From NCBI GenBank assembly GCA_003389385.1, contig QQVM01000022.1:68490-132489 (forward strand): a stretch of 64,000 nt of DNA, given 5' to 3'. This document shows, piece after piece, positions 3,929 through 34,832 of the stretch. The notes below the pieces were generated by a model. That model was not told the origin of the DNA and searched no databases. It was given only the letters and a program-made list of their open reading frames with translations. The first letter of the stretch is position 1. The number at the start of each line of letters is the position of its first letter. The position numbers were made by a program, and so were the translations under genes. The DNA is from Bacteroidota bacterium. GTDB taxonomy: Bacteria > Bacteroidota > Bacteroidia > AKYH767-A > 2013-40CM-41-45.

Positions 3929-4074
3929 TATTAGCTTGGGGTCTGCAATGAGCCTTGTTAATTAATCAATTTTATTTTACAAGCCTGTTTTTTTACTTTT
4001 TTGCAATCTTTAAAAGTAGATTGCCTTTGATAATTTCCATGGAATTCGTTTAATTTTATATAAAATTTTATACC

Positions 4075-7233: not shown

Positions 7234-9036
7234 ATGAGTGACAAGATTGAAAATATTCTTTCCGGACTGGAAGACAGACCGGGTGTTTACCAGTTTTACG
7301 ACCGTGAGGGAACCCTTTTATACATAGGTAAAGCAAAGTCTCTGCGAAAAAGAGTGAGCTCTTATTTTCAAAAAGAAAAACATGAGAACGGTAAAACTGC
7401 GGTACTCGTTCGCAAAATAGCGGATATAAAAACTTTGGTTGTGGATTCAGAAATGGATGCGCTATTACTGGAGAACAGTTTGATTAAAAAACACCAGCCA
7501 CGTTATAATGTTAATCTGAAAGATGACAAGACTTATCCCTGGATCTGTATAAAGAATGAAAGATTTCCAAGAGTGTTTGTCACACGTAAGCTAATAAAAG
7601 ATGGCAGTGAGTATTTCGGACCATACACTCCGGTGAAGATGATTAACACTCTGTTGGAACTCATAAGCCAACTCCATAAGCTTCGCAATTGTAATTTGAA
7701 TCTTTCAGAGGAAAATATTGAAGCAGGCAAGTTCAAGGTTTGTTTGGAATATCACATAGGAAACTGCAAAGGACCCTGTGAAGGATTGCAATCGCAGGAT
7801 GATTATGACCAAAGTATAAAGGAGATTAGGATGATTTTGAAGGGAAACATTCAAATGCTCATTCAATTATTGAAGGAAAAAATGTCTGATCATGCTGCCG
7901 GTTTTAAGTATGAAGAGGCTCAGTTGATGAAAGAAAAGGTTGAGCTTTTGGAAAGGTTCAAGTCCAAATCAGTGTTAGTGAATCCCTCGATTCATAATAC
8001 TGATGTATTTTCTATAATCACAGAAGATGATTCTGCTTTCGTGAATTTTTTAAGAATCATGAATGGAGCCATCGTACAGGGGCATACGGTGGAGATGAAA
8101 AGGAAGCTCGATGAAACTCCTGAAGAGCTGCTTGAGATCGCTATCGCAGAAATGCGTACAAGATTTCACAGTGATGCTCCTGAAATACTGGTGCCTTTTG
8201 TTCCTGAAACGGAACTGAAAGGGGTTACATTCACGGTTCCGAAAATTGGCGACAAAAAAAAGTTGCTCAGCTTATCTGAAGCCAATGTGAAAAACTACAT
8301 AAGAGAGAAAAACCTACAGCTTGAAAAACAGAATCCGGAAAACCGAACCCTTCGTTTGCTGGAGCAGATGAAGGCTGATCTTCGATTGAAGGATCTGCCG
8401 CGCCGCATCGAATGTTTTGACAATTCAAACATCCAAGGAGCATTTCCTGTGGCAGCGATGAGTGTTTTCATTAATGGAAAGCCTGCAAAAAAGGAATACA
8501 GACACTTCAACATTAAGACTGTGGAAGGTCCGGATGATTTCGCTTCCATGGAGGAAGTGATTTACCGCCGTTACAAAAGAATGCTGGATGAAGCCACAGA
8601 TCTCCCTCAGCTCATTATAATAGACGGAGGAAAAGGACAGTTGAGTGCAGCTATGAACAGCCTCGACAAACTCGGATTAAGAGGAAAGATTGCAGTCATC
8701 GGTATAGCGAAGCGCCTGGAAGAAATATATTACCCGGGTGATTCAGCCCCTTTATATATTGACAAGAAGAGCGAAACTTTAAAAACCATACAGCACCTCC
8801 GTGATGAAGTGCATCGTTTTGGAATTACTCATCACCGTAACAGGAGAAGCAAAGATCTGGTGAAGACGGAGCTTTCTGAGATCCCTGGAATAGGTGATAA
8901 AACAGCTACGCAGTTGCTGAGTCATTTTAAAAGCATCAAGAGTCTGGAAAAAGCAGGAAGGGAGGAAATAGAAGCATTAGTTGGTAAATCGCGTGCGGAA
9001 AAAGTGATAAAATATTTTGAAAGGACTAAAAAGTAA
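7234..9036 (+). CDS. uvrC: Excinuclease ABC subunit C.
   Basis: GIY-YIG N-terminus (GVYQFYDREGTLLYIGKAKSLRKRVSSYF), a UvrBC motif and a C-terminal HhH. Length is 600 aa. Confidence 0.93.
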   Translation: MSDKIENILSGLEDRPGVYQFYDREGTLLYIGKAKSLRKRVSSYFQKEKHENGKTAVLVRKIADIKTLVVDSEMDALLLENSLIKKHQPRYNVNLKDDKTYPWICIKNERFPRVFVTRKLIKDGSEYFGPYTPVKMINTLLELISQLHKLRNCNLNLSEENIEAGKFKVCLEYHIGNCKGPCEGLQSQDDYDQSIKEIRMILKGNIQMLIQLLKEKMSDHAAGFKYEEAQLMKEKVELLERFKSKSVLVNPSIHNTDVFSIITEDDSAFVNFLRIMNGAIVQGHTVEMKRKLDETPEELLEIAIAEMRTRFHSDAPEILVPFVPETELKGVTFTVPKIGDKKKLLSLSEANVKNYIREKNLQLEKQNPENRTLRLLEQMKADLRLKDLPRRIECFDNSNIQGAFPVAAMSVFINGKPAKKEYRHFNIKTVEGPDDFASMEEVIYRRYKRMLDEATDLPQLIIIDGGKGQLSAAMNSLDKLGLRGKIAVIGIAKRLEEIYYPGDSAPLYIDKKSETLKTIQHLRDEVHRFGITHHRNRRSKDLVKTELSEIPGIGDKTATQLLSHFKSIKSLEKAGREEIEALVGKSRAEKVIKYFERTKK

Positions 9037-20176: not shown

Positions 20177-21949
20177 ATGAGCAATAAAGAAAAGCTGCTT
20201 AGCGTAAAAAATCTAAGTACTGAATTTTTAAGCGGCGAAGGAATACATAAAGCAGTAAAAGGAATCTCATTCGACCTTCACAAAGGCGAAACTCTAGGTC
20301 TTGTGGGCGAATCAGGATCAGGAAAATCTGTTACATCACTTTCTTTAATGCGACTTATCGGCAATCCCGGTAAAATCAGCGGAGGTTCTGTGATTTATTC
20401 TGAACGTGATGATAAACAGACAGACTTGCTTTCGCTACCTGAAAAAGAAATGAGAAAATATCGGGGGAAAGAGTTAGCGATGATTTTTCAGGAACCCATG
20501 ACCTCACTCAACCCGGTTTTAACTTGCGGATACCAGGTGGCAGAAGCTATCATGATCCATAACAGAGTGAGCAAAACAGAAGCACGAGAAGACGTGCTGA
20601 AGCTGTTCAGAAAAGTCGAACTGCCCAGACCGGAACAAATGTTTGATGCTTATCCGCATCAACTAAGCGGTGGACAGAAGCAGCGTGTGATGATCGCTAT
20701 GGCCATCAGCTGCAAGCCGCAGGTACTGATTGCAGATGAACCCACAACTGCACTGGATGTTACAGTACAGGCCACAATCCTGAAGCTTCTTAAAAATCTT
20801 CAGCAGGAAACCGGAATGAGTCTGATTTTTATCACTCATGACCTGGGCGTGATATCTGAAATAGCAGATCGTGTGCTTGTCATGTATCAGGGAAATATCG
20901 TTGAGCAGGGTGCCATAGGGGATATATTCATGAAACCCGCACATCCTTATACAAGAGGTTTGCTAGCCTGCAGACCCAGGCCTGATAGGAAGCTAAGGGT
21001 GCTTCCTGTCTTATCGGATTTCATGAAGGTTGATGCAGAAGGAAAGTTTTCAGAGAAGATTTTCAATGAAACAGAAGAGCTTAAAAAACTTGAGCTTAGT
21101 CCAGAACAAATAATCCGGGAGCGAAACAAAATATATTCTGGAAGCCCGGTCCTGGAAGTGAAAAACCTGAGCACCTGGTTTCCGGTGCGTAAAGGACTCT
21201 TTGGAAAAACAAAGGATTATGTGAAGGCTGTCGACGATGTCAGTTTCAATGTTTACCCCGGAGAAACCCTTGGTCTTGTAGGTGAGTCAGGTTGCGGCAA
21301 AACCACTCTTGGCCGCTCGATTATCCGACTGGTAGAGCCCAGCTCAGGACAAGTGATTTTTCGCGGATACGATTTCGCCGGACTCAGGGGAAAAGCACTT
21401 CGCCAGACAAGAAAGCACATACAGATTATTTTTCAGGACCCTTACTCATCACTCAATCCGCGAATGACCATAGGCAATGCAATTCTTGAACCAATGGAAG
21501 TGCATCGTATGCATGATAATTATGAGAAGCGAAGGATGAAGGTCTTTGAATTGCTTGAGAAAGTCGGACTTCAGGCAGATCACTTCAACCGTTATCCTCA
21601 TGAGTTCAGCGGAGGTCAAAGACAAAGAATCTGCATTGCACGCGCATTGGCATTGGAACCGCAGTTTATCATCTGCGATGAATCAGTCTCAGCTCTGGAT
21701 GTGTCGGTGCAGGCTCAGGTTCTGAATCTGCTCACGCAGCTTAAAAAAGATTTCGGACTTACCTATATTTTCATCTCTCATGATTTGTCTGTCGTAAAAT
21801 TCATGAGCGACAAGCTTATCGTCATGAATAAAGGTAAAATTGAAGAGGCAGGATATCCTGAAGAAATTTATGCAAATCCCAAGTCGGATTATACTAAAAA
21901 ACTGATCAGCGCAATCCCTGGAATGAAGAAGGATTTTTCCGGAAACTGA
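20177..21949 (+). CDS. ABC transporter ATP-binding protein with two fused NBDs, of the Dpp/Opp (YejF/GsiA-like) type.
   Basis: Two Walker A motifs (GESGSGKS, GESGCGKT), two LSGGQ signatures and two oligopeptide-type C-terminal extensions (AHPYTRGLL; SDYTKKLI). Confidence 0.85.
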   Translation: MSNKEKLLSVKNLSTEFLSGEGIHKAVKGISFDLHKGETLGLVGESGSGKSVTSLSLMRLIGNPGKISGGSVIYSERDDKQTDLLSLPEKEMRKYRGKELAMIFQEPMTSLNPVLTCGYQVAEAIMIHNRVSKTEAREDVLKLFRKVELPRPEQMFDAYPHQLSGGQKQRVMIAMAISCKPQVLIADEPTTALDVTVQATILKLLKNLQQETGMSLIFITHDLGVISEIADRVLVMYQGNIVEQGAIGDIFMKPAHPYTRGLLACRPRPDRKLRVLPVLSDFMKVDAEGKFSEKIFNETEELKKLELSPEQIIRERNKIYSGSPVLEVKNLSTWFPVRKGLFGKTKDYVKAVDDVSFNVYPGETLGLVGESGCGKTTLGRSIIRLVEPSSGQVIFRGYDFAGLRGKALRQTRKHIQIIFQDPYSSLNPRMTIGNAILEPMEVHRMHDNYEKRRMKVFELLEKVGLQADHFNRYPHEFSGGQRQRICIARALALEPQFIICDESVSALDVSVQAQVLNLLTQLKKDFGLTYIFISHDLSVVKFMSDKLIVMNKGKIEEAGYPEEIYANPKSDYTKKLISAIPGMKKDFSGN

Positions 21950-22009: not shown

Positions 22010-22765
22010 TTGCAGCCCGTATTTATGTTAGGAGCTGAAAAAGAAAAATGGGCTGTAGTGGTCCCGATGGCAAATGAAGAACCGGATTTTTTGCCTTTTA
22101 TTAAGGCCTTGAAAAGCAGCCTTGATGGAATAGGTTCAGGTGTCGTATTTTTCATCGTTGACAATGTGTCAAAAGACCGCACTCTTCAGCTTTGCCAGGA
22201 ACTTTCCGCAACTGATAATAGATTCCAGACTATCTGGGCCCCTGAAAACAGAAATGTAGTGGATGCATATATGCGTGGCTACCAAGAAGCATACGATAAT
22301 GGATTTGATTACATCATTGAAATGGATGCAGGATTATCGCATGAACCGGATACTCTTTCAGAGTTTATAAAATTCCTCAGCCAGGGAGTGGAATGTGTCT
22401 TTGGCAGCCGCTTCATTAAAGGCGGCAGCATGGGCGACTCTCCGTTCAAACGAAGAATGTTGTCTCAAACAGGTACCATGCTTTCTAATTTGTTGCTCGG
22501 CACTCGAATGAAAGACATGACTTCCGGGTTCCAGGGCTTTAGAAATGATATCGTTAAGAAGCTATTGGAATACCAATTAAAATCCAAAGCTCATTTTTAC
22601 CAGACTGAAATCCGTTACCTTTTACGCAAACGTAAATACATAGAAATACCGATTCGTTATAAAGCTCCCTCGCCGAGAGTGTCAGGTAAGGCGATTAGAA
22701 ATTCGATAGAAACTTTGCTCTATTATTTCTGGAGGAGAATTACTTTTCGCTCAATTTCTCTTTAA
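22010..22765 (+). CDS. GT2 polyprenyl-phosphate sugar synthase (DPM1/Ppm1-like).
   Basis: VVPMANEEP...FFIVDNVSKDRT...EMDAGLSHEPD matches the DPM1-like consensus (VPTYNE...DDgS.DgT...DADLsHhP). Length is 251 aa with no TM segment. Confidence 0.7.
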   Translation: MQPVFMLGAEKEKWAVVVPMANEEPDFLPFIKALKSSLDGIGSGVVFFIVDNVSKDRTLQLCQELSATDNRFQTIWAPENRNVVDAYMRGYQEAYDNGFDYIIEMDAGLSHEPDTLSEFIKFLSQGVECVFGSRFIKGGSMGDSPFKRRMLSQTGTMLSNLLLGTRMKDMTSGFQGFRNDIVKKLLEYQLKSKAHFYQTEIRYLLRKRKYIEIPIRYKAPSPRVSGKAIRNSIETLLYYFWRRITFRSISL

Positions 22766-22767
22766 AA

Positions 22768-23781
22768 ATGAAGAAAGCAACTTCACTTATAATTACATCC
22801 ATTGCTTCGCCAAACGAAGTTCTGAAATCCTGTGCTGAAGGTTCACGTGAAAATGGCGTACGCTTCATTGTGATTGGCGATGTGAAATCACCGGCTGATT
22901 TTAAGCTGGATTCATGCGAGTATTATTCGGTGGAGGCTCAGGAGAAGACTGACTTTCGTCTCGCAAAGCTTCTTCCATATAAGCACTATGCACGAAAAAA
23001 CCTCGGTTATCTTCTTGCTAAAGACAGTGAAGTGATCATTGAAACGGATGATGATAATTTTCCACGTCAGGATTTTTGGAGTGAAAGAATTAGAATGACC
23101 GGCGCACTCAAACTTGAAAACCAGGGATGGGTAAATGTATACAGGGCTTTTTCCGATTCATATATCTGGCCCAGGGGATTTCCGATTGAATTCTTGCAGG
23201 ATGATATGAATTCAGGTTCTGATTTGATTATCAAGTTCCGCACTAAAGGTCCTGAACTCATGGACTGTCCGATACAACAAGGGCTTGCTGATGATAATCC
23301 GGATGTTGACGCGATTTACAGAATGACAATGAAATTGCCGGTAGTCTTCGGTAAAGTTGAGCCAATCGCACTTGCTAAAGGTTCATGGTGTCCGTTCAAC
23401 AGTCAGAACACCACATGGTTCAAAGAAGCATTTCCTTTATTGTACCTTCCTTCATATTGCAGCTTTCGCATGACCGATATATGGAGAAGTTTCATCGCAC
23501 AAAGAATAGCATGGACCTGCAATTGGTCTGTGTTGTTTCATTCGTCAACGGTTTGGCAGGAGCGCAATGAGCATAACCTGCTTAAAGATTTTGCAGATGA
23601 GGTCCCGGGATATCTTAACAATGTGAACATTTGCAAAGCTCTTGAGGAGGCTGACTTGAAAAGCGGTGTGCTGCATATCGCTGAGAATTTGATGAGATGC
23701 TACAAAATTATGGTATCAATGAATTTGGTTGATGAGAAAGAACTCAAATTGGTAGATGCATGGCTGCAGGATATATCCTGA
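22768..23781 (+). CDS. Hypothetical protein, possibly a DUF288/STELLO-like glycosyltransferase.
   Basis: N-terminal IITSIASPN...VRFIVIGDVKSP...RKNLGYLLA...ETDDDNFP recalls the DUF288 family. This is my own recollection and is unverified. The gene is coupled 2 bp behind the GT2 gene. Confidence 0.4.
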   Translation: MKKATSLIITSIASPNEVLKSCAEGSRENGVRFIVIGDVKSPADFKLDSCEYYSVEAQEKTDFRLAKLLPYKHYARKNLGYLLAKDSEVIIETDDDNFPRQDFWSERIRMTGALKLENQGWVNVYRAFSDSYIWPRGFPIEFLQDDMNSGSDLIIKFRTKGPELMDCPIQQGLADDNPDVDAIYRMTMKLPVVFGKVEPIALAKGSWCPFNSQNTTWFKEAFPLLYLPSYCSFRMTDIWRSFIAQRIAWTCNWSVLFHSSTVWQERNEHNLLKDFADEVPGYLNNVNICKALEEADLKSGVLHIAENLMRCYKIMVSMNLVDEKELKLVDAWLQDIS

Positions 23782-23832: not shown

Positions 23833-26016
23833 ATGGTTTACAGAAAAGAAATACTAGCCATGTTGACCCTGGCTATGCTCACTTCCATGTATTTTGTTTT
23901 ACACAGGAAGAAAAGGCAGTCCGATGCTGATCAGTCACAGAATTTTACTGTACAGGAAGCAATGACCCTTTCTGAAGAAGTGGTTCTTTATCGGGAAGTA
24001 TTTTCGTTTGAGAATGAAGCCGGAATAGACAATGCTTTTTCTTTGAGTGCGGATAAAGCAAACAGCGGAAGACGAAGTGTCAAACTTGAAAACAATGTCG
24101 AATTCGGCGCAACAGTAAAGAGAAGGCTCGGTTCACTTGCCAAGACCGGCAAAGCAGAAAGAGTAAAGATCAAATGTTTCGCACAGTCCGATGAAAAAAT
24201 AACAGAAGGTAAAATTGTAGTATCGATTGACGATCCTTCCGGCAAAAACCTGTTTTGGCAGGCGCTTAGCGTTCCCGAATCAGTCTTGAACTGGACAGAA
24301 CTTGATGCGGAATTCAATGTAAGCAAGGATGTGAATTCGGATGACAACATCTTGTCGGTCTATCCCTGGAATCCCGGAAAAAAAATATTTTATATAGACG
24401 ATCTTGAAATAAGCCTGATTGGCAAATCAGTGGTCCGGCCTTATGCTCAGGATCCTCTGATACAGACAAACTTTGAATTTACTTTTGAGAATGCATCCAC
24501 GGATGTATTTGGAAAAAATATCAGCGATGATGTGGCAAGAAACGGATCAAACTCACTCTTGCTTCACCCGGGAAACAAAAGTTTTTCAATCATTAAAAAA
24601 ATTGAAGAGGTAGCAAATGCGGATGTCAAAACGGTCTCGATCAGTTTTTGGGTTTATCCTCTGAAAGAAAATTGTGATGTCAATATGGTGTTTTCATTAA
24701 AAGACAGTTACGGAAAACAGAGCATTCAGAATAAAACCACGGGAAAAATGAAACTCCGTCGAAATGCCTGGAACAGAGTAAATGCGCGATGGAAAACAGA
24801 AAATGAGAATGCTGCAGCAGGAAGTGTTTTTGAACTTTATCTGATCAATCAGGGCAGAGGCGATGTGTATATCGATGACATGTTGGCTGTATTCGGAGAT
24901 CCTCCACCGGCACCTGGTGGCAGTCCGGTCATCAGCACTTATAAAGCGGAAAGCACAGTGCTGCCTCCGGTAAATAAACCTCCTTTCAGACCGGCTTACC
25001 TGCAAAAGTTGTCTGCATTGACGATGTTCAGTATGGGCAATGATAAAGCTGATGGAAAAATCGGCATTCAACCCGGCGCACATTTTCATTACGGGAATTT
25101 TACTGGCAGTGCTGAGAACCTCTTGATACTGCAAGGGAATACAGTAATCCTCTGCAATCTGGATGTGACTTCATCTGTTCCAAATAAGATCATTGAATTT
25201 GTGACAAGCCGGAATTATTCTTCTGCCATTCAAGTTGCGGATATAAAATTATATGATGAAAGAAAATGTCTGATCGCATTGCTGGAGGATAGAAAAAGCT
25301 TCAGTATTCTTTGCTTTGATGAAACCGGAGTGAAAGAGAAACCTATAAAACTTCAAGCTGAGTTGCAAGGGTATAATCATATCAGCTCAATCGACATTGA
25401 CGGAAAAAGCTCATTCGAAATAGTTCTGATGAGTGAGTCAGGGAAGTGGATCGTATTGTCCGATGACGGCGCTGAATTGTACAATGGTACTTTGAATGTC
25501 CCGGATCTTCGCATTACTTCCCTCTTGCAAATGAAGCATAATTCTTCAGAAAAAAAGTTGATGACATTTGGAATGAAATCCGGAAAGTCATTTTCAGCAA
25601 TATTGTCCTGGAATAAAGCGGCTCAAAAATTTCAGACAGAGAGAATGCACACATATGAATACCCGCTGTTCAATTCTGGAGATAAAATATTTGAACTTCC
25701 CCAGACTAATTCTTCCGTTTCATATTACCAGATTAATAATTCAGGCCGAAGATTTAGCATGCGTCTGATGAAGTATTCTGATAACAGGATGATTGTTCTG
25801 AATGATCTTGATTTCAAGGGATATCAAGCCGATGCGAACCCTAAATACTATGAAATGATCAGGGTATTGCCATTGTATCCTAACAAGATTTATCCAACAT
25901 CTTTCCTGGTCTTTCATGCGAATTGTTTCGACAAGGACTATTCAGGTAAATCATGCAGCAGGTTCGAAGATATTGACGGATTGCCCAACGGTTTTTCTAT
26001 TTATTCATTTCAATGA
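23833..26016 (+). CDS. Membrane-anchored extracytoplasmic protein with two N-terminal CBM4/9/22-like beta-sandwich domains and a large C-terminal region of unknown function.
   Basis: N-terminal TM anchor (LAMLTLAMLTSMYFVL). Two segments each run FE..G...S..A.SG..SL...FW...Y.W(N)..G...YIDD(L/M). A PPPAPGG linker follows. Confidence 0.6.
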   Translation: MVYRKEILAMLTLAMLTSMYFVLHRKKRQSDADQSQNFTVQEAMTLSEEVVLYREVFSFENEAGIDNAFSLSADKANSGRRSVKLENNVEFGATVKRRLGSLAKTGKAERVKIKCFAQSDEKITEGKIVVSIDDPSGKNLFWQALSVPESVLNWTELDAEFNVSKDVNSDDNILSVYPWNPGKKIFYIDDLEISLIGKSVVRPYAQDPLIQTNFEFTFENASTDVFGKNISDDVARNGSNSLLLHPGNKSFSIIKKIEEVANADVKTVSISFWVYPLKENCDVNMVFSLKDSYGKQSIQNKTTGKMKLRRNAWNRVNARWKTENENAAAGSVFELYLINQGRGDVYIDDMLAVFGDPPPAPGGSPVISTYKAESTVLPPVNKPPFRPAYLQKLSALTMFSMGNDKADGKIGIQPGAHFHYGNFTGSAENLLILQGNTVILCNLDVTSSVPNKIIEFVTSRNYSSAIQVADIKLYDERKCLIALLEDRKSFSILCFDETGVKEKPIKLQAELQGYNHISSIDIDGKSSFEIVLMSESGKWIVLSDDGAELYNGTLNVPDLRITSLLQMKHNSSEKKLMTFGMKSGKSFSAILSWNKAAQKFQTERMHTYEYPLFNSGDKIFELPQTNSSVSYYQINNSGRRFSMRLMKYSDNRMIVLNDLDFKGYQADANPKYYEMIRVLPLYPNKIYPTSFLVFHANCFDKDYSGKSCSRFEDIDGLPNGFSIYSFQ

Positions 26017-27941
26017 CAGAAGGCATGAGATATTCAATTGTCCTGATAGCATCGCTTTTCCTTTTTTCTTGCGGAGGCAAAAAAGAAAGAAAGAGTTTGG
26101 TGCAAAAGAAGAAGTTCGACATCGTTCATTTTAGTGCGCTGACAAACTGGGGGCAACAAAATCAAAAGGATAAAACAATAGAGTTTGACTATACAGATGC
26201 AATTTTGCATGGTTTTGTCATGCCCAGCATCAGGCAGGTTCAGGATGGAAAATTCACATTCGAGTTTTCTGTAAGTAATAAATCCGATTCGGCAGCCAAA
26301 TTCCATTATAAGATTTATTATCAGAATGAGAGTTATAAATTTCATGAGCTTGATTCTATCAGCGGAAGGGAGCATGAATTCGCGAATGAGAATTTTTATG
26401 GAAGCTGGCTCGATACAGGAATTGGTTTCAGAGAAACGGAATTAATTCAACCTGGAAAAAATGTTAACATTACGGATTCCTTTCAGATTGCAGGTAATCC
26501 CCGCAATGAGCAGATTTGTTTCAAGGATGGAGTGAATCAAAGGTGGAAAAGAAACCCAAGAACAGGCGAGTATCGTTTCATGCTCGTTGTAATCAGCGAC
26601 GCGGCATATAAATCAAAATTGATACCGGAATATATATCAAACATATCTCTGACTGTTAATGGAAGATTCCAAAATCCATTTTACTTTTTTAAATACGGTG
26701 CAGGAAGCAAGTCATCCGAAATTGCTGTAGTGCATGCGGAAGAGAGACTCATGGCAAGCGCACGCCCTGACCCGGGTGCGGGAATGTTTTATAATCCTTA
26801 TCATTTTGATTACAGGATGAAGAGAATTAAAACGGAATACCTCTGCGATACAGACAGCCAAGCTTACAAAAATGCTGCCTTTGAACAGTTTGTGCATCAC
26901 ATTGATTATTCAACCAATCTTGAAAACATTCCGGTAATCGCCGATGTCTCAGGAAGCAATTACACGAGGAGAGATTATAACTGGAACCGGAGTTTCTACA
27001 GAAGAGAAGAGCTCATCTCCACTCCCCCGAATGCGCCAATGTACCCTTGTGAAACTGTAGTTTCTGATCCAGTCAGAAAGGTGATTACCATTCGAAACCC
27101 CGGCGTTACATACGGCAACTGGAAGAAGGAAAATGTTGGAATCATCACAAGGCACGGACTGGCATACGGAAAGTATCGCATGAAGTGCAAGCTCACCAGA
27201 CAACTCAACGATCATAATGTCTGGAATGGAATCACCAATGCAATTTGGATGATATACCAAAGCGGTGAAGATTGGAATCTCAGACGGGCCTGCCGCAAGG
27301 AAGGATATATGGAAAATTACTACGGAGGAAGAAATGACAATCGCGTGAGCCGCGTCGGTTATTCAGAAATCGATTTTGAAATTTTAAAAACTCCGGATTA
27401 TTGTCCTGACCAGTACTTTCCACCCGTATATAAGAATCCTGCACCGAACAGATTCAATCAAAGCTCATGGAATGTACCATGGCCTCAGGATATAATGGAC
27501 ACGGATGACAAGCTGAGCGTATCCTGTACAAACTGGGACATGGCCTGCTGGGAGCCATCAAAGTACGGTGTCGGTTGCAATCCCATCTCATATCAGGGAC
27601 AAGTCTTTAATTCGCACAGATGGGACCACTGGTACCGTGCAATCACTCAAAAAAAGCAGGTAAGCGACAAGGAAATGTTTGGCGGACCATACTATTATTT
27701 TGAAATTGACTGGAGGCCGGAAGAGATTATATGGAGAATCGGTCCGGAACCTGATCAGATGTTCATTGTAGGATATATGAATAAGGACATCACTTCCATA
27801 CCGAATAATCAAATGCTGATGATTGTGACTCAGGAATTTCATAACACTCAGTGGTGGCCTGGTTCGCCTTACCATCAGCAATACATTCCTTTCCCTGAAA
27901 AAGATCTCGTGGGCGAGATTTATGAACTGGTGATTGAATAA
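26013..27941 (+). CDS. Lipoprotein with a GH16-like (concanavalin-type glucanase/transglycosylase) domain in its C-terminal half.
   Basis: Lipobox LIASLFLFSC. AYGKYRMKCKL...GITNAIWM...SEIDFEIL matches the GH16 signatures YGriEarIKl...WPAfWM...EIDixE, including the catalytic ExDxE. It overlaps the upstream gene by 4 bp. Confidence 0.55.
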   Translation: MTEGMRYSIVLIASLFLFSCGGKKERKSLVQKKKFDIVHFSALTNWGQQNQKDKTIEFDYTDAILHGFVMPSIRQVQDGKFTFEFSVSNKSDSAAKFHYKIYYQNESYKFHELDSISGREHEFANENFYGSWLDTGIGFRETELIQPGKNVNITDSFQIAGNPRNEQICFKDGVNQRWKRNPRTGEYRFMLVVISDAAYKSKLIPEYISNISLTVNGRFQNPFYFFKYGAGSKSSEIAVVHAEERLMASARPDPGAGMFYNPYHFDYRMKRIKTEYLCDTDSQAYKNAAFEQFVHHIDYSTNLENIPVIADVSGSNYTRRDYNWNRSFYRREELISTPPNAPMYPCETVVSDPVRKVITIRNPGVTYGNWKKENVGIITRHGLAYGKYRMKCKLTRQLNDHNVWNGITNAIWMIYQSGEDWNLRRACRKEGYMENYYGGRNDNRVSRVGYSEIDFEILKTPDYCPDQYFPPVYKNPAPNRFNQSSWNVPWPQDIMDTDDKLSVSCTNWDMACWEPSKYGVGCNPISYQGQVFNSHRWDHWYRAITQKKQVSDKEMFGGPYYYFEIDWRPEEIIWRIGPEPDQMFIVGYMNKDITSIPNNQMLMIVTQEFHNTQWWPGSPYHQQYIPFPEKDLVGEIYELVIE

Positions 27942-27948
27942 TATCTAA

Positions 27949-29907
27949 GTGGCTCAGCGAATGGCCGAAGAAAATGCAAAGCAAAGCGTGGGACTGAAAC
28001 AGAGAGGGGATATGCTCCTCTTTTACATTCTTTGCATTCTTTCAGTATTGCCTCTTTTCACACTGAAAATATTTTATACTCTCGAAGGTCCGCAACAAAG
28101 TTATTTTGCCGGAATACTTGCGAACATTTGGAAAGGCAATGAAATCGCTTCAATGCACTTCACTCAAACAGGGCATTTAAGTCCAGGATCTTCAATTCAG
28201 TATTTGCTTGCGATCTTTCAGCTTGTTTTCAGTGCAATTGTTTCTGAAAAAATATTTCAGTTTTTGTACATCATTTTAGCAGCATTCGCATTTCGATTGT
28301 TTCTTAAGAAACTGTACTTAAATACAAAGCCATATTCTCTGCTCATCTTCCCGCTTTTATTTTCATTTCCTTTTTTTACAGGAGCGTATTCAGTTCTTGC
28401 GGGCTTTGTTATTCTGTTCTTGATACTCGCATATTTTATTTCTTCAAATGTCTTGAGCCTAAAGCGTCTAACGGTCTTGTCTCTTTTGTTATTGGTTGCG
28501 TGTTTTACAGACACCTTGTCATTTGTACTCGCATTTCTGTTCATCACATTGTATCAGCTCACAGCGAATAAAGGAAATGATGTGACGAAAAGAGGCAGTA
28601 TCATTCCCATATTAATTACCTGCTTCCCTTCTTTCCTCTACTTATGGTTTTTTACGGAAGGTCAATCATTGTTTAGCACTTATTCATTTGAGATGTTTCT
28701 GAATCAGGCTAAGGAGCTGGTTCAATTAAGGAGTTTTATAGTTTTCAATCGGGAAAAGGAAATTTTCTACTCTATGGCGCTTGGACTTTTGATTGCGCTT
28801 GCTGCAGTCAGAACGTTTACATCACGAAAGAAACTTCAGGGAAATATTCTCTTTCTTACAGCTTCATTGGTTTTGATAGCTCTTTTATATTTTTTCATTC
28901 CTGCAATACCCTTGTTCTCCGGAAGCTCGGCGCACATGATGCAGGTTTATCTTCTTTCATTTCTTATATGTATTGCTGCAGTAAGCAATATCGACAATGT
29001 CTCCCGCATCCTTATTGGAATTATTCTCATAATTTCTGCAATAAATTATATTCTTAATCTTCATCCTGTACAAAAAATCAACAATCAGGAAGTCATTGAG
29101 CATTTTCACGCATCTTCACAAATGCGTTCAGACGCAACAGTGCTCCACCTTGATTACTCAGGCAATTGGTTTACACGGGAAATGAAGCATATGCTGGATG
29201 ATAATAAATCTCTTATGATCCTCAATGCTTCCTATGGTTTCGGAAATCTGTTTAATGCAAATCAAGCAAGATCCATAGCTCCATTCATCCAATCTGACCT
29301 AAACGCTAAGCCTTGTCCTGATTTGAAGGCATTTCATGATCAATGCAACTGCAGAACAGATTATATCATTCTTTGGAAAAAGCAGAATGTTGATACTGAT
29401 TGCAAATTTGAAAATGAGATCCTTAAAAGTGAGTACGAGCTGCTGCCATTGACTGATGCGCCGCATTTGCAGCTATGGCAAAGGAAACAATTGTCTTTTG
29501 TTTCCGGCAGCCGGAAACAGGATTTCGAAAATTATCAGGGGGATAATCTGCTGAACAGCGTATCAGGAAGTCGTTTCATGATGAAGGAGAATCTTGAATT
29601 CAGTCCGGGTCTTGAAATGAAGTTAATCGAAACGAATCTTGAATCTTCGATCTTCTTCCAGGGAAGTGTTAAGGTATACGGTACAAGCGGCAGTTCGGAA
29701 GCATTTCTGATCTTGAGCAGAGAAAGAGGTGGCGAGATACTGAATTACATTAAATCAGATGTTTTGCAGGTTCATTCAGGTGAAGGAGAATTTTTCATTC
29801 AGATGGAAATTTCAGACCCGCATCCAGATGATCTGCTGAAGTGCTATGTTTGGAAACCAGGAGGAGGGACTATAATTATTGATGATTTAAATGTAAACTG
29901 GCGATGA
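27949..29907 (+). CDS. Polytopic inner-membrane protein (about 10 TM in the first 370 aa) with a C-terminal CBM-like domain. The architecture is GT-C-like (ArnT/YfhO-like) and would be the partner of the GT2 polyprenyl-P-sugar synthase.
   Basis: Hydrophobic helices are read directly from the sequence. The C-terminal 130 aa carry the same ...CYVWKPGGGTIIIDDLNV signature as the neighbouring proteins. Confidence 0.5.
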   Translation: MAQRMAEENAKQSVGLKQRGDMLLFYILCILSVLPLFTLKIFYTLEGPQQSYFAGILANIWKGNEIASMHFTQTGHLSPGSSIQYLLAIFQLVFSAIVSEKIFQFLYIILAAFAFRLFLKKLYLNTKPYSLLIFPLLFSFPFFTGAYSVLAGFVILFLILAYFISSNVLSLKRLTVLSLLLLVACFTDTLSFVLAFLFITLYQLTANKGNDVTKRGSIIPILITCFPSFLYLWFFTEGQSLFSTYSFEMFLNQAKELVQLRSFIVFNREKEIFYSMALGLLIALAAVRTFTSRKKLQGNILFLTASLVLIALLYFFIPAIPLFSGSSAHMMQVYLLSFLICIAAVSNIDNVSRILIGIILIISAINYILNLHPVQKINNQEVIEHFHASSQMRSDATVLHLDYSGNWFTREMKHMLDDNKSLMILNASYGFGNLFNANQARSIAPFIQSDLNAKPCPDLKAFHDQCNCRTDYIILWKKQNVDTDCKFENEILKSEYELLPLTDAPHLQLWQRKQLSFVSGSRKQDFENYQGDNLLNSVSGSRFMMKENLEFSPGLEMKLIETNLESSIFFQGSVKVYGTSGSSEAFLILSRERGGEILNYIKSDVLQVHSGEGEFFIQMEISDPHPDDLLKCYVWKPGGGTIIIDDLNVNWR

Positions 29908-29960
29908 ACAAATTTGTACTCTAACGAGTAAAAACTAATTTTATCCGATTAGAAACTAAA

Positions 29961-30542
29961 TTGAATACTCATATACGATATCTTCAGCTATTCGGACTGC
30001 TGATACTTTCATTGTGCATGTTTTCATGTGTGTATAAAAGTAAGGTCAGCATTTCAAACGACTGCGAAAGCATGGTTGGCTGGACTGATACAGTACCACT
30101 GGTGAAAGGAGATGCGCATTCTGGAGATTATTTTACGCGAACGGATTCCGCTTCGAAGTACAGTCTTACTTTTCGAAGAAAGTTAAAGCACATCACAGAT
30201 TATGAAGTAAGAAGAATCGATTTGGGTGTATGGGTGCGTGCGGAGGAAGGCGCCAATGCCAAGCTGGTTGTTGCACTTGATCACAAAAAGCGTGCAGTGT
30301 TCTGGGCAGGAGTGGAGCTCAGGAAAGAGGACCTGGTGCCAGGCCGCTGGACAAGATTATACTACAGCTACTATCTGCCGGAAAAAATGCATCCTGAAAC
30401 AGAAGTAAAGGTTTACATTTGGAATACTTCAGGAAAGAAAGTGGATGCAGATGATTTCGATATTCACTTTTATTTGGGAGCTGAAAAATGGAAGAATGAC
30501 AGTTTCAGTCTAACTTCATCTCAGGAATTTCGCCATCAATAA
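29961..30542 (+). CDS. Small lipoprotein consisting of a single CBM4/9/22-like domain.
   Basis: Lipobox LLILSLCMFSC, then ...GW...AHSG.Y...WVR...KVYIWNTSGKKVDADDFDI. Confidence 0.55.
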   Translation: MNTHIRYLQLFGLLILSLCMFSCVYKSKVSISNDCESMVGWTDTVPLVKGDAHSGDYFTRTDSASKYSLTFRRKLKHITDYEVRRIDLGVWVRAEEGANAKLVVALDHKKRAVFWAGVELRKEDLVPGRWTRLYYSYYLPEKMHPETEVKVYIWNTSGKKVDADDFDIHFYLGAEKWKNDSFSLTSSQEFRHQ

Positions 30543-31899
30543 TCAGTTTTCCTGCAGTGGCTTTTGAGATTTCATCCACGCTCACTCCGGGTGCTCTTTC
30601 CAGAAGTTTAAATCCACCTTCAGGCAAAACATCCAGCACAGCAAGTTCTGTGACTATCTTTTTCACACATCGAATGCCAGTAAGCGGTAAGGTACATTTA
30701 GGCAACAGCTTGGATTCACCGGCTTTGTTCACATGCTGCATGGCTACGATGATGTTCTTCGCTGATGCGACGAGATCCATCGCCCCTCCCATGCCTTTCA
30801 CCATTTTACCCGGAATTTTCCAGTTGGCGATATCTCCGTTTTCACTCACTTCCATCGCACCGAGAATGGTCAGGTTTACTTTCCCCGAACGAATCATCCC
30901 GAAACTCATCGCAGAATCAAAAAACACTGAGCCTGGAACTGTGGTGATGGTTTGCTTGCCTGCATTGATAAGATCAGGATCTTCCTCTCCTTCATATGGA
31001 AAGGGTCCCATCCCCAACAATCCGTTTTCAGACTGCAGCACTACATTGATTCCTGAAGGTATGTAGTTGGCGACTAGTGTTGGTATGCCGATTCCCAGGT
31101 TGACATAGTATCCGTCTCTCAGTTCTTTCGCGATGCGTTTTGCAATTCCGTTTTTATCAAGCATGGCAATGTTGGAGTAAAATGATTTTATAATGAATGA
31201 TAAGGATTTTTTACGAACGGTTCTTTGTTCTATCCTCTTTTCGTATGAGGTACCCTGAAAAATCCTGTGTACATAAATTCCCGGTGTGTGAATCTGGTCA
31301 GGATCAAGTTCACCTGCAGGCACAAGTTCTTCCACTTCTGCAATGGTGATTTTTCCTGCCATGGCCATCAGAGGATTGAAATTTCTTGAAGTCGCCTTAT
31401 AAATGAGGTTACCGTGTGTATCGCCTTTCCAGGCTTTCACAATGGCGAAGTCGGCTTTGAACGCATATTCCATAAGATAATCCTTCCCGTCAAAGTTTCT
31501 CACTTCCTTGCCTTCGGCAATTTCAGTGCCGACTCCTGCCGGAGTGTAAACGACAGGCATTCCGTAACCTGCGGCAAGGCAGCGTGTGGCGAGTGTTCCC
31601 TGAGGAATCAGATCCACTTCCAGCTCGCCGCTGAGCATTTGCCTTTCGAATTCAGCATTCTCTCCCACATAGGAGGAAATCATTTTTTTAATTTGCTTTT
31701 TCTGAAGGAGCAAGCCTAGCCCGAAATCATCCACGCCCGCATTGTTTGAAATGCAGGTAAGTCCTTTCACGTTTTTCTGCACAAGTGCGCTGATGCAGTT
31801 CTCAGGGATACCGCAAAGTCCGAATCCGCCCAGCATCAGCGTCATTCCGTCCTGCACATCGCGAACTGCTTCTTCTGCATTCTTTACTATTTTGTTCAT
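30505..31899 (-). CDS. 3-oxoacid CoA-transferase with fused A and B subunits.
   Basis: The N-terminal half matches ScoA/AtoD (MNKIVKNAEEAV...GGFGLCGIPE) and the C-terminal half matches ScoB/AtoA (...LGIGIPT...SENG catalytic Glu region). The ORF opens at 31956, but the likely start is MNKIV at 31899. Confidence 0.8.
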   Translation of the reverse strand: MNKIVKNAEEAVRDVQDGMTLMLGGFGLCGIPENCISALVQKNVKGLTCISNNAGVDDFGLGLLLQKKQIKKMISSYVGENAEFERQMLSGELEVDLIPQGTLATRCLAAGYGMPVVYTPAGVGTEIAEGKEVRNFDGKDYLMEYAFKADFAIVKAWKGDTHGNLIYKATSRNFNPLMAMAGKITIAEVEELVPAGELDPDQIHTPGIYVHRIFQGTSYEKRIEQRTVRKKSLSFIIKSFYSNIAMLDKNGIAKRIAKELRDGYYVNLGIGIPTLVANYIPSGINVVLQSENGLLGMGPFPYEGEEDPDLINAGKQTITTVPGSVFFDSAMSFGMIRSGKVNLTILGAMEVSENGDIANWKIPGKMVKGMGGAMDLVASAKNIIVAMQHVNKAGESKLLPKCTLPLTGIRCVKKIVTELAVLDVLPEGGFKLLERAPGVSVDEISKATAGKLIIDGEIPEMKLD

Positions 31900-31909
31900 G
31901 ATATAGAAA

Positions 31910-34126
31910 TTAAAAATCCCGGTCAAAAGAAGTTTTATTGTCACCCGGCTGCACATATTTGCTGCAATCGGTTTCCACTCTCACCGGTTCTGATGGTTTG
32001 GGGAAATCCCCGGTATAGATATTGAGATTTTTATCGGCCAGCACTTTCTGCATGTACAATGCCCAGATAGGCATGGCAGTTCTGGCCCCCTGACCGAGTT
32101 CAAGCGTACGGAAGCGTACAATACGGTCTTCGCACCCAACCCAGCACCCGGAAACAAGCTCCGGTGTCATTCCGAGAAACCAGCCGTCACTTTGATTTTG
32201 TGTAGTGCCGGTCTTGCCTGCTATGGGATTCGTGAACTTGTATTGGCCGCGCAGCCTTGCACCGGTACCGTATTGCACTACACCCTGAAGCAGATTCGTC
32301 ATCAGGTATGCAGTCTCTTCATTGATCGCCTCGACTTTTCGTGGAACAAAATCCTGAAGCACGTTTCCATTCTTGTCTTCAATTCTTGTGATGTACTGCG
32401 GCTGTGTCCATACGCCTTTGTTCGCAAAAGTAGAATACGCTCCGACCATTTCATACACAGATACATCAGGTGTTCCAAGTGCAATGGCAGGAACAGGATC
32501 TATCGGTGCAGTAATGCCCATTTTTCGTGCAATCTCAATCATTGCCTGCGGACCGAATTGCTTCATCAGGAATGCTGATACTGTATTGACCGATTCTGCA
32601 AGACCTTCTTTCAGAGTAAGCATACCTCCGTATTTTGCGTCTGCATTTTCCGGTGACCATGTGTCACCTGTTGGAAGATCAAATGTCACACGAACATTCG
32701 GAACTTTGAAGCAGGGCGAATATCCTTCCTGCATCGCAAGCGTGTAAAGGAATGGTTTGAATGTCGAGCCGACTTGCCTTTTTCCATCTTTCACATGGTC
32801 ATACTGAAAAAAGCGATAGTCATTTCCTCCTACCCAGGCTTTGATTTGTCCTGTATGAGGCTCCATAGACATAAATCCAACCTGAAGAATTTTCTTGAAA
32901 AACTTCACGCTGTCGAGCGGCGACATCACCGTGTCAATGTCCCTATCCCAGCTGAAGAGTTTCATTTTTGTCTTTGCAGCAAAAGCACTGTCGATTTCCT
33001 TCTTGCTCGCGCCTGCTGCTTTCATCGCGATGTACCTGTTGGAACGCCTGATTCCTTCCTGCATCACTTCAGGGTGGTCAGACCATGGCTCTTTTCCTTT
33101 CCAGTGCTCATCGAATTTTTTCTGCAAGACAGTCATGTGCTCACGCATGGCCTCTTCCGCATACTTCTGCATTCTTGAATCTATCGTCGTATAGATTTTT
33201 AATCCGTCTGTATAAAGGTTGTAGGGTTTTCCCGTTGCGTTGTTGATATGCTCCTTGCACCATTTCAGCAAATCCACTCGAAGAACCTCTCTGAAATAGG
33301 TGGCAAGTCCATAGTTGTGATCTTCGTTCTGAAAGTTGAGTTCTATCGGAAGTGCTTTGAGCGAATCAAATTCTGTGCGTGTAAGAAAATCATACTTGCG
33401 CATTTGGTTGAGTACGACATTCCTTCTCTGCAAGGCATTGTTTGGATTTCTGGCCGGATTGAATTTTGTAGGCGCCTGCAGCATACCTACAAGTATCGCG
33501 GATTCCTGAATATTCAGGGAGTCGGGAGTTTTATTGAAGTATGTGCGTGCAGCAGATTTAATACCAAATGCATTGCTGCTGAACTCTACCGTGTTCAGAT
33601 ACATTGCAATGATTTCTTCCTTGGTATAACGTCGTTCAAGTTCCACAGAAATTATCCATTCCTGAATTTTTTGAATCACGCGTTCCAGTTTAGAGTCCGG
33701 CTTTTCGTGAAAGAGATTTTTTGCAAGCTGCTGTGTGATGGTGCTTCCACCACCGGCTTGTCCCGCCCTCAATACGGCTCGCAGCAGTCCTTTGGGATCA
33801 ATGCCGCTGTGATCTTCAAAGCGAATGTCTTCAGTGGCTTTCAACGCATGAACCACATTTTCACTCAGTTCGTAATAATGTATGTTGGTTCTGTTCTCGA
33901 TATAATATTTACCCAACACCGACTGATCACTGGAAATCACTTCTGATGCGAGGAAGCTTTTGGGATTTTCCAATTCTTCAAAGGATGGCAACTGCTGCCC
34001 AATCCAGCCCTTCGAGGCCATGAAAACCACAATGGCCATGATCACAAAGGGCGTGATCACCAGCAGCCAGAAAAATGAAATGTATTTCGCGAAACTTGTC
34101 TTTGATTTTGGCATAAAAAAGCCCAA
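31910..34126 (-). CDS. mrcA: Class A penicillin-binding protein 1A (GT51 transglycosylase plus transpeptidase).
   Basis: GT51 motifs (EDxRFxxHxG-like EDIRFEDHSGID; GGSTITQQLAKN), the transpeptidase SxxK (STFKPF), SxN and KTG (KTGTT) motifs, and an N-terminal TM segment. Confidence 0.9.
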   Translation of the reverse strand: MGFFMPKSKTSFAKYISFFWLLVITPFVIMAIVVFMASKGWIGQQLPSFEELENPKSFLASEVISSDQSVLGKYYIENRTNIHYYELSENVVHALKATEDIRFEDHSGIDPKGLLRAVLRAGQAGGGSTITQQLAKNLFHEKPDSKLERVIQKIQEWIISVELERRYTKEEIIAMYLNTVEFSSNAFGIKSAARTYFNKTPDSLNIQESAILVGMLQAPTKFNPARNPNNALQRRNVVLNQMRKYDFLTRTEFDSLKALPIELNFQNEDHNYGLATYFREVLRVDLLKWCKEHINNATGKPYNLYTDGLKIYTTIDSRMQKYAEEAMREHMTVLQKKFDEHWKGKEPWSDHPEVMQEGIRRSNRYIAMKAAGASKKEIDSAFAAKTKMKLFSWDRDIDTVMSPLDSVKFFKKILQVGFMSMEPHTGQIKAWVGGNDYRFFQYDHVKDGKRQVGSTFKPFLYTLAMQEGYSPCFKVPNVRVTFDLPTGDTWSPENADAKYGGMLTLKEGLAESVNTVSAFLMKQFGPQAMIEIARKMGITAPIDPVPAIALGTPDVSVYEMVGAYSTFANKGVWTQPQYITRIEDKNGNVLQDFVPRKVEAINEETAYLMTNLLQGVVQYGTGARLRGQYKFTNPIAGKTGTTQNQSDGWFLGMTPELVSGCWVGCEDRIVRFRTLELGQGARTAMPIWALYMQKVLADKNLNIYTGDFPKPSEPVRVETDCSKYVQPGDNKTSFDRDF

Positions 34127-34232
34127 AATTGTTTGAATTTTGTAAAAGTACTAATTTTTTAAGGGCACGAAACCTGTGCGTTTTCAAAGTGTTATAACGA
34201 CAGGAATGCCTCAAAATTTTGTAAATTGCAAT

Positions 34233-34832
34233 ATGCGCAGGAGTAAAACCATACTACTTATAATTCTGGTTCTCTTGGGATTCAAAGTCAGCAAAGCCCA
34301 GTACCTGAGCACTTTTACCGCAGTACAGATAGGCGCTGAAGTAGAGTTAAGCATTGTGGTTGCGGCCGGTAATACTTGCAACGGAATGAACATTCTCAGA
34401 TCGCCTGATGGCATTAATTATTCTGAAATCGGAAACATTGCAGGCATTTGTGGTAGCACCAGCGAAGATGTCAAATACAGCTGGACCGACACAGATCCAT
34501 TGCGGAATTCCGTAAACTATTATCGTATCGACCTGATAACACTCGGTTACTCGCTTCCTGTGACTGTATTTTATCTTCACTTCGATAAAAGCCCGGTGCT
34601 GATGTATCCCAATCCTGTAACATCAAATTCGAATGTATACCTCAATATCGGCAGGAATGATGTGTTTGATGTACTTATCTATTCAGTAGAAGGACGGCTT
34701 GTAAAAAGCATATCGGGAGTACGCGGCAATCATTTTATGATCAGCGCGGAAGATTTTATTCCCGGCATGTACAAGTTCAGAGTAATAAGTTCTCGCGGTT
34801 ATTCTGCTGAACACAATTTCATCGTAAATTAG
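34233..34832 (+). CDS. Small secreted protein with a T9SS type A C-terminal sorting domain.
   Basis: Signal peptide MRRSKTILLIILVLLGFKVSKAQ. CTD: LMYPNPVTSNSNVYLN...VLIYSVEGRLV...GMYKFRVISSRG. The ORF opens at 34176. Confidence 0.7.
   Translation: MRRSKTILLIILVLLGFKVSKAQYLSTFTAVQIGAEVELSIVVAAGNTCNGMNILRSPDGINYSEIGNIAGICGSTSEDVKYSWTDTDPLRNSVNYYRIDLITLGYSLPVTVFYLHFDKSPVLMYPNPVTSNSNVYLNIGRNDVFDVLIYSVEGRLVKSISGVRGNHFMISAEDFIPGMYKFRVISSRGYSAEHNFIVN

Follow-up and report, generated by a model that had tools for sequence, protein, structure and literature searches.

The window analysed here is a stretch of 64,000 nucleotides from a Bacteroidota bacterium (GenBank assembly GCA_003389385.1, contig QQVM01000022.1, positions 68,490 to 132,489 of the forward strand); coordinates below are counted from its first nucleotide. 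Between 20.2 and 30.5 kb it holds a tight run of genes on a single strand, with intergenic gaps of -4 to 61 bases. The subject of this analysis is the last four genes of the run, called p727, p642, p652 and p193, and a domain that three of their products carry in a total of four copies, A to D:

23833-26016, + strand: p727, with an N-terminal transmembrane anchor, copies A and B, an NKPPF linker, a weakly FG-GAP-like middle and a conserved Cys-rich C-terminus
23995-24420, + strand: copy A, p727 residues ~55-196, ending ...SVYPWNPGKKIFYIDDLEISL
24463-24900, + strand: copy B, p727 residues ~211-356, ending ...ELYLINQGRGDVYIDDMLAVF
26013-27941, + strand: p642, a lipoprotein with GH16-like motifs and without a domain copy; core partner of p727
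27949-29907, + strand: p652, a polytopic membrane protein, followed by a soluble region of ~150 aa and then copy C
29521-29901, + strand: copy C, p652 residues ~525-651, C-terminal and degenerate, ending ...KCYVWKPGGGTIIIDDLNVNW
29961-30542, + strand: p193, a small lipoprotein made of copy D
30042-30473, + strand: copy D, p193 residues ~28-171, a stand-alone lipoprotein copy, ending ...KVYIWNTSGKKVDADDFDIHF

None of the four proteins found a match in Pfam or NCBIfam scans, or in single-sequence searches of PDB sequences, and the public records checked for them are of hypothetical proteins from Bacteroidetes metagenome-assembled genomes (MAGs).

Four domain copies in three proteins

A previous reading of this DNA from its letters alone (the sequence-only reading) had pointed to a motif series shared by four segments of these proteins and ending in a strand of the form phi-Y-I-D-D. 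All of the instances it quoted are in place: YIDDL at residue 187 and YIDDM at residue 346 of p727, IIDDL at residue 643 of p652, and DADDF at residue 162 of p193. By pairwise BLAST, copies A and D, and likewise A and B, align over ~137 residues at 21% identity, while copy C aligns to A and D over its last 27-50 residues only. Because BLAST caught so little of copy C, a profile was built from sequences outside the window. This first hidden Markov model (HMM), trained on copies A and B from five distant homologs of p727 (P0002-P0006), finds p193 with an independent E-value (i-E) of 2.4e-20 (HMM positions 3-148) and, with 6.7e-8, residues 525-651 at the C-terminus of p652 (positions 15-148); the next-best of the 475 open reading frames (ORFs) in the window has E 4.3. 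A broad HMM of 410 domain instances, from which every window sequence was excluded, recovers all four copies (i-E 4.2e-38 for A, 1.7e-29 for B, 5.5e-40 for D and 1.8e-12 for C), with the next window ORF at E 2.1. The similarity therefore goes well beyond the terminal motif, and extends over nearly the full domain in each case. That the short phi-Y-I-D-D ending has merely recurred by chance in unrelated beta-rich segments, as the 27-50 residue BLAST alignments of copy C might suggest, is extremely improbable: near-full-length matches to independent profiles, at E 1.8e-12 to 5.5e-40, and the 12 orders of magnitude between the weakest copy and the next ORF lead us to treat chance similarity as excluded by the first and broad HMM searches.

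Since no further ORF scores better than E 2.1 against the broad HMM, the window holds exactly four copies, each of about 140-150 aa. The possibility of one more copy, hidden for instance in p642 or in the soluble linker of p652, was rejected on the same score.

The copies are unequally well preserved. Compared with models of the different classes of the domain, copy A is best matched by the p727_A model (131.8 bits) and copy B by p727_B (118.3 bits), although copy B has Ile at the near-universal Trp of the Y-x-W-N motif. Copy C is clearly the most degenerate, with W92 replaced by Y, W107 by F and N133 by K, and with the N-terminal third shortened. Its best class models are “other” (54 bits) and the GT-C-fused classes (40-47 bits), against ~21 bits for p727 A/B; it also groups with the “small” class, the GT-C-fused, “other” and “small” models together giving 40-54 bits. 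By this placement copy C did not arise by recent local duplication of the p727 copies; the idea that it was recently duplicated from its neighbours, whether in p727 or in p193, was considered and rejected.

The start of p193 also calls for comment. A TTG start at 29961 gives a 193-aa product (also recorded as P0161) with a normal lipoprotein signal, ...LSLCMFS-C. The NCBI protein P0007 (174 aa) begins instead at the internal Met of “MFSC...”, and has no signal peptide. An ortholog, P0008, 44% identical to p193, has a clear lipobox (VTAC), and to judge from these sequences the deposited start is probably wrong.

The domain as a relative of CBM22

The sequence-only reading had likened the shared pattern to carbohydrate-binding modules (CBMs) of the CBM4/9/22 group, with a CBM-like jelly roll as the expected fold, and as regards fold and homology this proposal holds up. 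An AlphaFold 2 (AF2) model of the p193 domain (copy D), built on a 14-sequence alignment of paralogous copies, is all-beta, with ten strands and no helices (pLDDT 89.1, pTM 0.83). In a Foldseek comparison with the PDB, its first match is the CBM22-1/CBM22-2 tandem of Paenibacillus barcinonensis Xyn10C (E 1.6e-6, TM-score ~0.6). The top entries overall are CBM22 (4XUP/4XUO/4XUN, 1H6X), CBM16, a porphyran-binding CBM, CBM61 and CBM4, with E 1.6e-6 to 1e-4 and TM-scores of 0.5-0.6.

Sequence profiles alone pick out the same PDB entry that Foldseek places first. Searched against 177,635 PDB sequences, a family profile of 14 sequences finds 4XUP at E 2.1e-6, and one of 40 diverse sequences finds it at E 3.1e-11; further entries are 4XUN (1.1e-5) and 4XUO (9.8e-4). 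The 40-sequence alignment spans the whole domain onto CBM22-2, and in it the two coincide in D-F-E at the N-terminus, in G-x-W-x-x-I at the centre and in the last strand, Y-[IV]-D-D-[LV]-x-I, the resemblance on which the sequence-only reading had remarked. The Pfam model for CBM_4_9 (PF02018), on the other hand, has no match to p727, p652 or p193 at E ≤ 1. Among sampled family members it reaches one of 14 (E 0.013) and four of 40 at E ≤ 0.1, the best at E 3.5e-5. A p727 homolog (P0016) scores 25.6 bits, just under the cutoff of 25.9, and the gathering threshold is passed only by distant relatives such as P0108 (38 bits). Because the CBM22 profile matches hold while Pfam's CBM_4_9 model barely detects the family, the domain is predicted to be a beta-jelly-roll of ~145 residues from a divergent, unannotated branch of the CBM_4_9 (PF02018)/CBM22 superfamily.

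In a set of 414 non-redundant instances, conservation falls on E11, S29-G30, W92 (in F-W-x-G), W107, Y130-x-W132-N133 and D142-D143. Those conserved above 90% in all classes include Trp107, Trp132, Asn133 and Asp142-Asp143, which would fit either a common ligand or a common core. Several of the top conserved residues are also found in CBM22-2, and their conservation is therefore no proof of a shared ligand. In CtCBM22-2, the conserved aromatic and acidic residues of the ligand cleft are reportedly Trp53, Tyr103 and Glu138.

Relative to CBM22 as known from Xyn10C (4XUP/4XUO/4XUN) and from Clostridium thermocellum Xyn10B (1H6X/2W5F), the domain is modelled with the same jelly-roll fold, and the two have significant profile similarity, with D-F-E, G-x-W-x-x-I and Y-[IV]-D-D in common. 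The tandem duplication in Xyn10C CBM22-1/CBM22-2 also has its counterpart in copies A and B of p727. The present family differs in its conserved F-W-x-G and Y-x-W-N, which are elements specific to it; CBM22 falls within PF02018, which the window copies do not reach; and in place of secreted glycoside hydrolases, the present domain is borne by membrane (GT-C-like) proteins, by a transmembrane-anchored FG-GAP-like protein and by lipoproteins, all from a cluster for biosynthesis or modification.

The family is large. Word-indexed homolog searches gave merely 6, 2 and 3 matches; because this kind of search strongly under-reports the family, an exhaustive profile search of 1.84 billion representatives (50%-identity clusters) was needed. 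It gave 3,856 clusters at E ≤ 1e-3, of which 1,639 reach E ≤ 1e-10 and 80 reach E ≤ 1e-30; towards the weak end, ordinary CBM_4_9 proteins may begin to mix in. The three architectures of the window are found again among them: proteins of 650-770 aa with two copies towards the N-terminus; stand-alone proteins of ~170-180 aa, which are common; and proteins of 610-650 aa whose copy is C-terminal. Longer proteins, of 780-975 aa, have two or three copies at the C-terminus. Further architectures exist, in P0108, P0104, P0114 and P0056 among others. P0108 (1,316 aa) has three N-terminal copies, then a CotH-like region and a right-handed beta-helix; some membrane proteins have two or three C-terminal copies, and in P0074 two copies come after an N-terminal region that is uncharacterised.

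A conserved gene cluster and its membrane proteins

The remaining genes of the run lie directly upstream of p727:

20177-21949, + strand: fused double ATP-binding cassette (ABC) ATPase, directly 5' of the cluster
22010-22765, + strand: GT2 glycosyltransferase (PF00535, E 8.4e-19)
22768-23781, + strand: STELLO-like glycosyltransferase-family protein (PF03385, E 1.2e-11, 44.5 bits against a cutoff of 27.8, partial coverage)

The best NCBIfam matches of the GT2 protein are PgfS, ArnC (undecaprenyl-phosphate Ara4FN transferase), dolichyl-phosphate hexose transferase, AglJ and PpgS, all of them far below the equivalog cutoffs; on these similarities it is likely to be the maker of a lipid-linked donor. 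STELLO-like genes are also found 5' of p727 homologs in L003, L006-L010 and further loci; a literature search for STELLO together with Bacteroidetes gave no result. The ABC ATPase has two ABC_tran domains (plus oligo_HPY in homologs) and no adjoining permease, and an ABC ATPase is likewise found 5' of the cluster in 33 of the 82 loci described below.

The run is flanked by housekeeping genes and genes for cargo proteins of the type IX secretion system. Three proteins, at 326-2167, 4075-5754 and 34176-34832 (+ strand), have C-terminal sorting domains of that system (CHU_C, Por_Secre_tail), in keeping with the Bacteroidota origin of the window. A CoA-transferase and a class A penicillin-binding protein (PBP) occupy 30505-34126 on the - strand, with the PBP gene at 31910-34126. 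The CoA-transferase is one ORF of 483 aa here, where other loci have separate genes for its A and B subunits (~225-245 aa). This pair is a persistent 3' neighbour of the cluster across several Bacteroidota orders (L001, L006-L010, L053-L085), and in several Bacteroidales-type loci a PBP gene directly follows p642, although the intervening genes differ elsewhere.

With the p642 family as anchor, relatives were found in at least 503 species-representative genomes. The 80 loci obtained all come from MAGs of uncultured bacteria, and nearly all bear the label of Bacteroidota or of an order within it (labels include Flavobacteriales, Chitinophaga, Bacteroidales, Prolixibacteraceae and Arcticibacter); together with loci fetched earlier, they make up a set of 82 p642-containing loci, whose neighbourhoods were scored with seed HMMs. 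A p727-type gene adjoins p642 in 78 of the 82, and the domain is present in 75. AlgX-family genes occur in 52 loci, MBOAT genes in 38, GT2 genes in 30-35 (in many of them beside a membrane-plus-domain gene), fusions of a membrane protein and the domain in 32, small stand-alone domain proteins in 25, and a class A PBP gene in 22. Typically the genes are arranged as ABC - GT2 - STELLO - p727 - p642 - (MBOAT - AlgX) - [membrane protein + domain] - GT2 - [small domain protein] - CoA-transferase - PBP1a; the window has this arrangement in compact form, and the MBOAT and AlgX genes are absent from its cluster. In about half of the loci (L002, L003/L004, L007, L010 and others), an MBOAT gene and one to three AlgX-family genes stand beside p727/p642. 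MBOAT together with AlgX is a hallmark of extracytoplasmic polysaccharide O-acetylation.

Of all genes in the cluster, p642 is the best conserved. Its product has a lipobox (LFSC) and three motifs in the usual order of GH16/concanavalin-like glucanases: TNAIWMI (~410), YSEIDFEILK (450-459) and YYYFEIDWRPEEIIWRIG (~560-577), with core stretches NAIWM (~410), EIDFE (452-456, E-x-D-x-E) and YYFEIDWRPEEIIW (~560-574). These are invariant in four orthologs, and the ortholog in L001 has a weak match to PF00722 (E 0.029); neither the single p642 sequence nor a p642 profile found anything in the PDB. In p727, the region after residue ~360 (window ~24910-26016) has the conserved NKPPF linker, a variable middle, and a conserved Cys-rich C-terminus with the pattern NPKYYE...N-C-x-D-x-D-[FY]-x-G-x-x-C. 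Matches to FG-GAP_3 are sub-threshold in p727 homologs, and clearer in P0002 and P0006 than in p727 of the window.

The membrane protein p652 has about 11 hydrophobic or transmembrane helices by hydropathy and AF2. Its N-terminus and the loops at 207-217 and 291-299 are rich in Lys and Arg, consistent with an N-in/C-out orientation that would put the C-terminal domain copy in the periplasm. A conserved T-[LVM]-[DE]-G-[PAG]-x-H immediately follows the first transmembrane helix in the family alignment, and the other three membrane families described below also carry an acidic motif there; this is consistent with GT-C, but not specific. Neither p652 nor four relatives have any Pfam or NCBIfam match, and the p652-family profile found nothing in the PDB at E ≤ 10. 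With hhalign, p652 matches PMT_2-type proteins at 19% (local) or 41% (global) probability, against 4% for an MBOAT control. The AF2 model of full-length p652, from a 3-sequence alignment, has pLDDT 38.3 and is unusable.

At other loci, the place of p652 is taken by different proteins. At least four families fill this membrane-plus-domain slot: memL001 (19 fusion proteins), memP105 (16), PMT_2 (5) and the p652 type, three of which are GT-C-like (PMT_2, GT87-like). The Pfam model PMT_2, a GT-C family with a cutoff of 26.1 bits, is passed by P0150 (35.7), P0159 (45.7) and a protein in L040 (27.2). A member of memP105 falls just short of it (25.9 bits, E 1.3e-5), as a memL001 member does of GT87 (22.9 bits, E 7.9e-5). 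By hhalign, memP105 is linked to PMT_2 at 80-94% and memL001 at 71-83% probability, with the MBOAT control at ≤4%. P0150, P0159 and GT87-like or PMT_2-like proteins of this slot have the domain at their C-terminus. Because of these PMT_2 and GT87 scores and the hhalign links, the domain can be said to be recurrently fused to GT-C-type enzymes in a conserved cluster. A side observation concerns L041, which on its minus strand has three p652-type proteins (2901-4547, 7651-8781 and a third match), none with the domain, adjoining a GT2 gene and a small domain protein.

The sequence-only reading had taken p652 to be such a fusion, with the domain as a built-in acceptor-recognition module. The first part stands for the relatives of the PMT_2 and GT87-like kind; for p652 itself, with no Pfam, NCBIfam or PDB match and the hhalign probabilities above, the evidence is weaker. 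Built-in acceptor recognition on a GT-C enzyme is a plausible reading, for which there is precedent.

Possible roles of the domain

If the four copies have a common function, it could be recognition of a glycan, assembly of proteins with one another, or attachment to the cell wall. The first seems the most probable to us, with moderate confidence: four copies of a CBM_4_9/CBM22-type jelly roll would act as a shared recognition module for one envelope glycan. Carbohydrate binding by the domain, the identity of the ligand, the periplasmic topology and a glycosyltransferase activity of p652 are what we infer in this reading. The copies would all be placed outside the cytoplasm: two on the anchored p727, one at the periplasmic C-terminal end of p652, and one in the lipoprotein p193. 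A glycan-recognition role fits the domain's presence at every extracytoplasmic non-catalytic position of the cluster, and its carbohydrate-active company.

The GT2 matches and the GT-C-type membrane proteins together follow the scheme by which glycans are modified outside the cytoplasm with sugar from a lipid-linked donor. The GT2 enzyme would make a lipid-linked sugar, a polyprenyl-phosphate donor, which membrane glycosyltransferases would use outside the cytoplasm, and the domain would hold the polymer or recruit proteins to it. With the membrane enzyme, p727 and the free lipoprotein tethered by the domain to one polymer, the extracytoplasmic enzymes of the cluster (the membrane glycosyltransferases, the GH16-like protein and, elsewhere, the MBOAT/AlgX O-acetylation pair) might act on the same substrate. 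Because no flippase gene was seen, one possibility is that the ABC ATPase at 20177-21949 powers export or flipping. The role proposed for the domain is by analogy with the CBMs of EmbC, AftD and the GT136 enzyme ORF12.

Among the closest known systems are ORF12/GT136 of Citrobacter youngae O1 and the mycobacterial EmbA/B/C and AftD, which also consist of a polytopic enzyme with an extracytoplasmic CBM after the last transmembrane helices. The CBM of the GT-C enzyme ORF12 binds the unmodified O-polysaccharide backbone in a three-component system (PMC11127046), and those of EmbA/B/C and AftD are also thought to hold the acceptor glycan (PMC11127046; bioRxiv 10.1101/2019.12.22.885152). By analogy, acceptor recognition by the domain on a GT-C enzyme is plausible. 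As in GT136-type systems, the sugar donor here would be a lipid phosphate, with a GT2-type synthase encoded nearby. The likeness is one of protein layout and context. Differences are that here one CBM family is found on at least four membrane-protein families as well as on non-enzyme partners of a single cluster; that, unlike in GT136-type systems, no flippase gene was seen; and that p652 has no detectable similarity to any GT-C family.

Gtr systems (a GtrA flippase, the undecaprenyl-phosphate glucose synthase GtrB, and a GtrC-type GT-C) also resemble the cluster, in having a GtrB/ArnC/DPM1-like GT2 beside polytopic proteins, which in many orthologous loci are GT-C-like as in Gtr. Unlike them, the cluster has no GtrA, MATE or SMR flippase candidate; it has extra conserved parts (the STELLO-like glycosyltransferase, p727 and the GH16-like p642, with MBOAT/AlgX in other genomes); and in the window it does not adjoin an O-antigen locus. 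The AlgX/AlgJ-AlgI O-acetylation machinery is a third point of comparison, through the co-occurrence of MBOAT (38/82) and AlgX (52/82) with the p727/p642 pair, although the window's cluster has neither gene. AlgX itself bears a CBM-like domain.

A number of observations weigh against glycan recognition. The Foldseek TM-scores are only 0.5-0.6, and CBM-like receptor-binding domains of binary toxins, a non-CBM context, are also among the matches. Copies A-D of the window reach no Pfam model, and copy C is without three near-universal residues. The FE start, G-x-W-x-x-I and Y-I-D-D are shared with CBM22-2, and may be scaffold rather than binding-site residues. Charges are similar on both sides of the N-terminal transmembrane helix of p727, leaving its orientation ambiguous. 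On the evidence of its sequence p652 is not demonstrably a GT-C protein, and elsewhere there are p652-type proteins with no domain (P0010, P0011 and those in L024, L028 and L041), and the fusion in the window is therefore unusual. Finally, no flippase (GtrA, MATE, SMR) or polymer synthase was found among the ORFs of the cluster and the flanking genes scanned.

Of the alternatives, the strongest, though unlikely by our estimate, is that the CBM-fold domain mediates protein-protein interaction, as a scaffold assembling p727, the membrane enzyme and the lipoprotein into one complex. It would account for the domain being found on all of the cluster's membrane and non-enzymatic components, for the number of best-conserved positions that are CBM22 scaffold positions, and for the retention of copy C despite its loss of several conserved aromatic and polar residues; similar jelly rolls do have non-glycan roles, some toxin receptor-binding domains among the Foldseek matches being examples. 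Sequence homology, however, is specifically to the glycan-binding CBM22 and CBM16, and the genomic context is carbohydrate-active throughout (GT2, STELLO-like, GH16-like, PMT_2/GT87-like, MBOAT/AlgX). The family-specific Trp, Tyr and Asn (FW-G, Y-x-W-N) are moreover 79-93% conserved, as is typical of sugar-binding platforms, and acceptor-binding CBMs on GT-C enzymes have precedent (PMC11127046).

A further alternative, to which we give still less credence, is that the domain binds peptidoglycan or a peptidoglycan-linked polymer, and so localises its proteins to the sacculus instead of offering a glycosyltransferase its acceptor. In that case the MBOAT/AlgX pair would work in the manner of the O-acetylation system PatA/PatB. 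The persistence of a class A PBP gene as neighbour (22/82 loci, directly after p642 in several of the Bacteroidales type) speaks for this, as does the lack of a dedicated polymer synthase or exporter in the cluster, which suggests a housekeeping polymer made elsewhere. But the PBP adjacency may be inherited synteny (an unrelated CoA-transferase shares the stretch), and the closest solved relatives of the domain bind xylan, beta-glucan or mannan-type chains and not peptidoglycan.

The envelope-glycan reading could be carried further, to a new pathway, shared by many Bacteroidota (at least 503 species genomes), that has all its extracytoplasmic components targeted to one polymer by a single dedicated CBM family. 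These components would be interchangeable GT-Cs of at least four families, the FG-GAP-like protein, its GH16-like lipoprotein partner, the O-acetylation pair and the free lipoprotein. In this version, which is speculative and on present evidence rather doubtful, the polymer could be peptidoglycan or a peptidoglycan-attached glycan, because PBP1a is a persistent neighbour. If true, the domain would be the founding member of a new family of CBMs in CAZy, one whose ligand is endogenous and not of plant origin.

For the most part, CBMs are known from secreted enzymes that break down polysaccharides, to which they are appended, and a few GT-C glycosyltransferases (EmbC, AftD, GT136) hold their acceptor with one; here a single CBM22-like family has been grafted repeatedly onto several membrane glycosyltransferase families and onto accessory proteins of one conserved cluster. 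It is a new, unannotated variant of a CBM-type module in a conserved and uncharacterised Bacteroidota cluster, and with thousands of sequence clusters to its name a new Pfam/CAZy entry would be justified; it is also a practical marker for finding the cluster. Because its lipoprotein form of 170 aa is directly expressible for testing, the domain may provide a soluble handle on the glycan made or altered by the cluster in environmental Bacteroidota.

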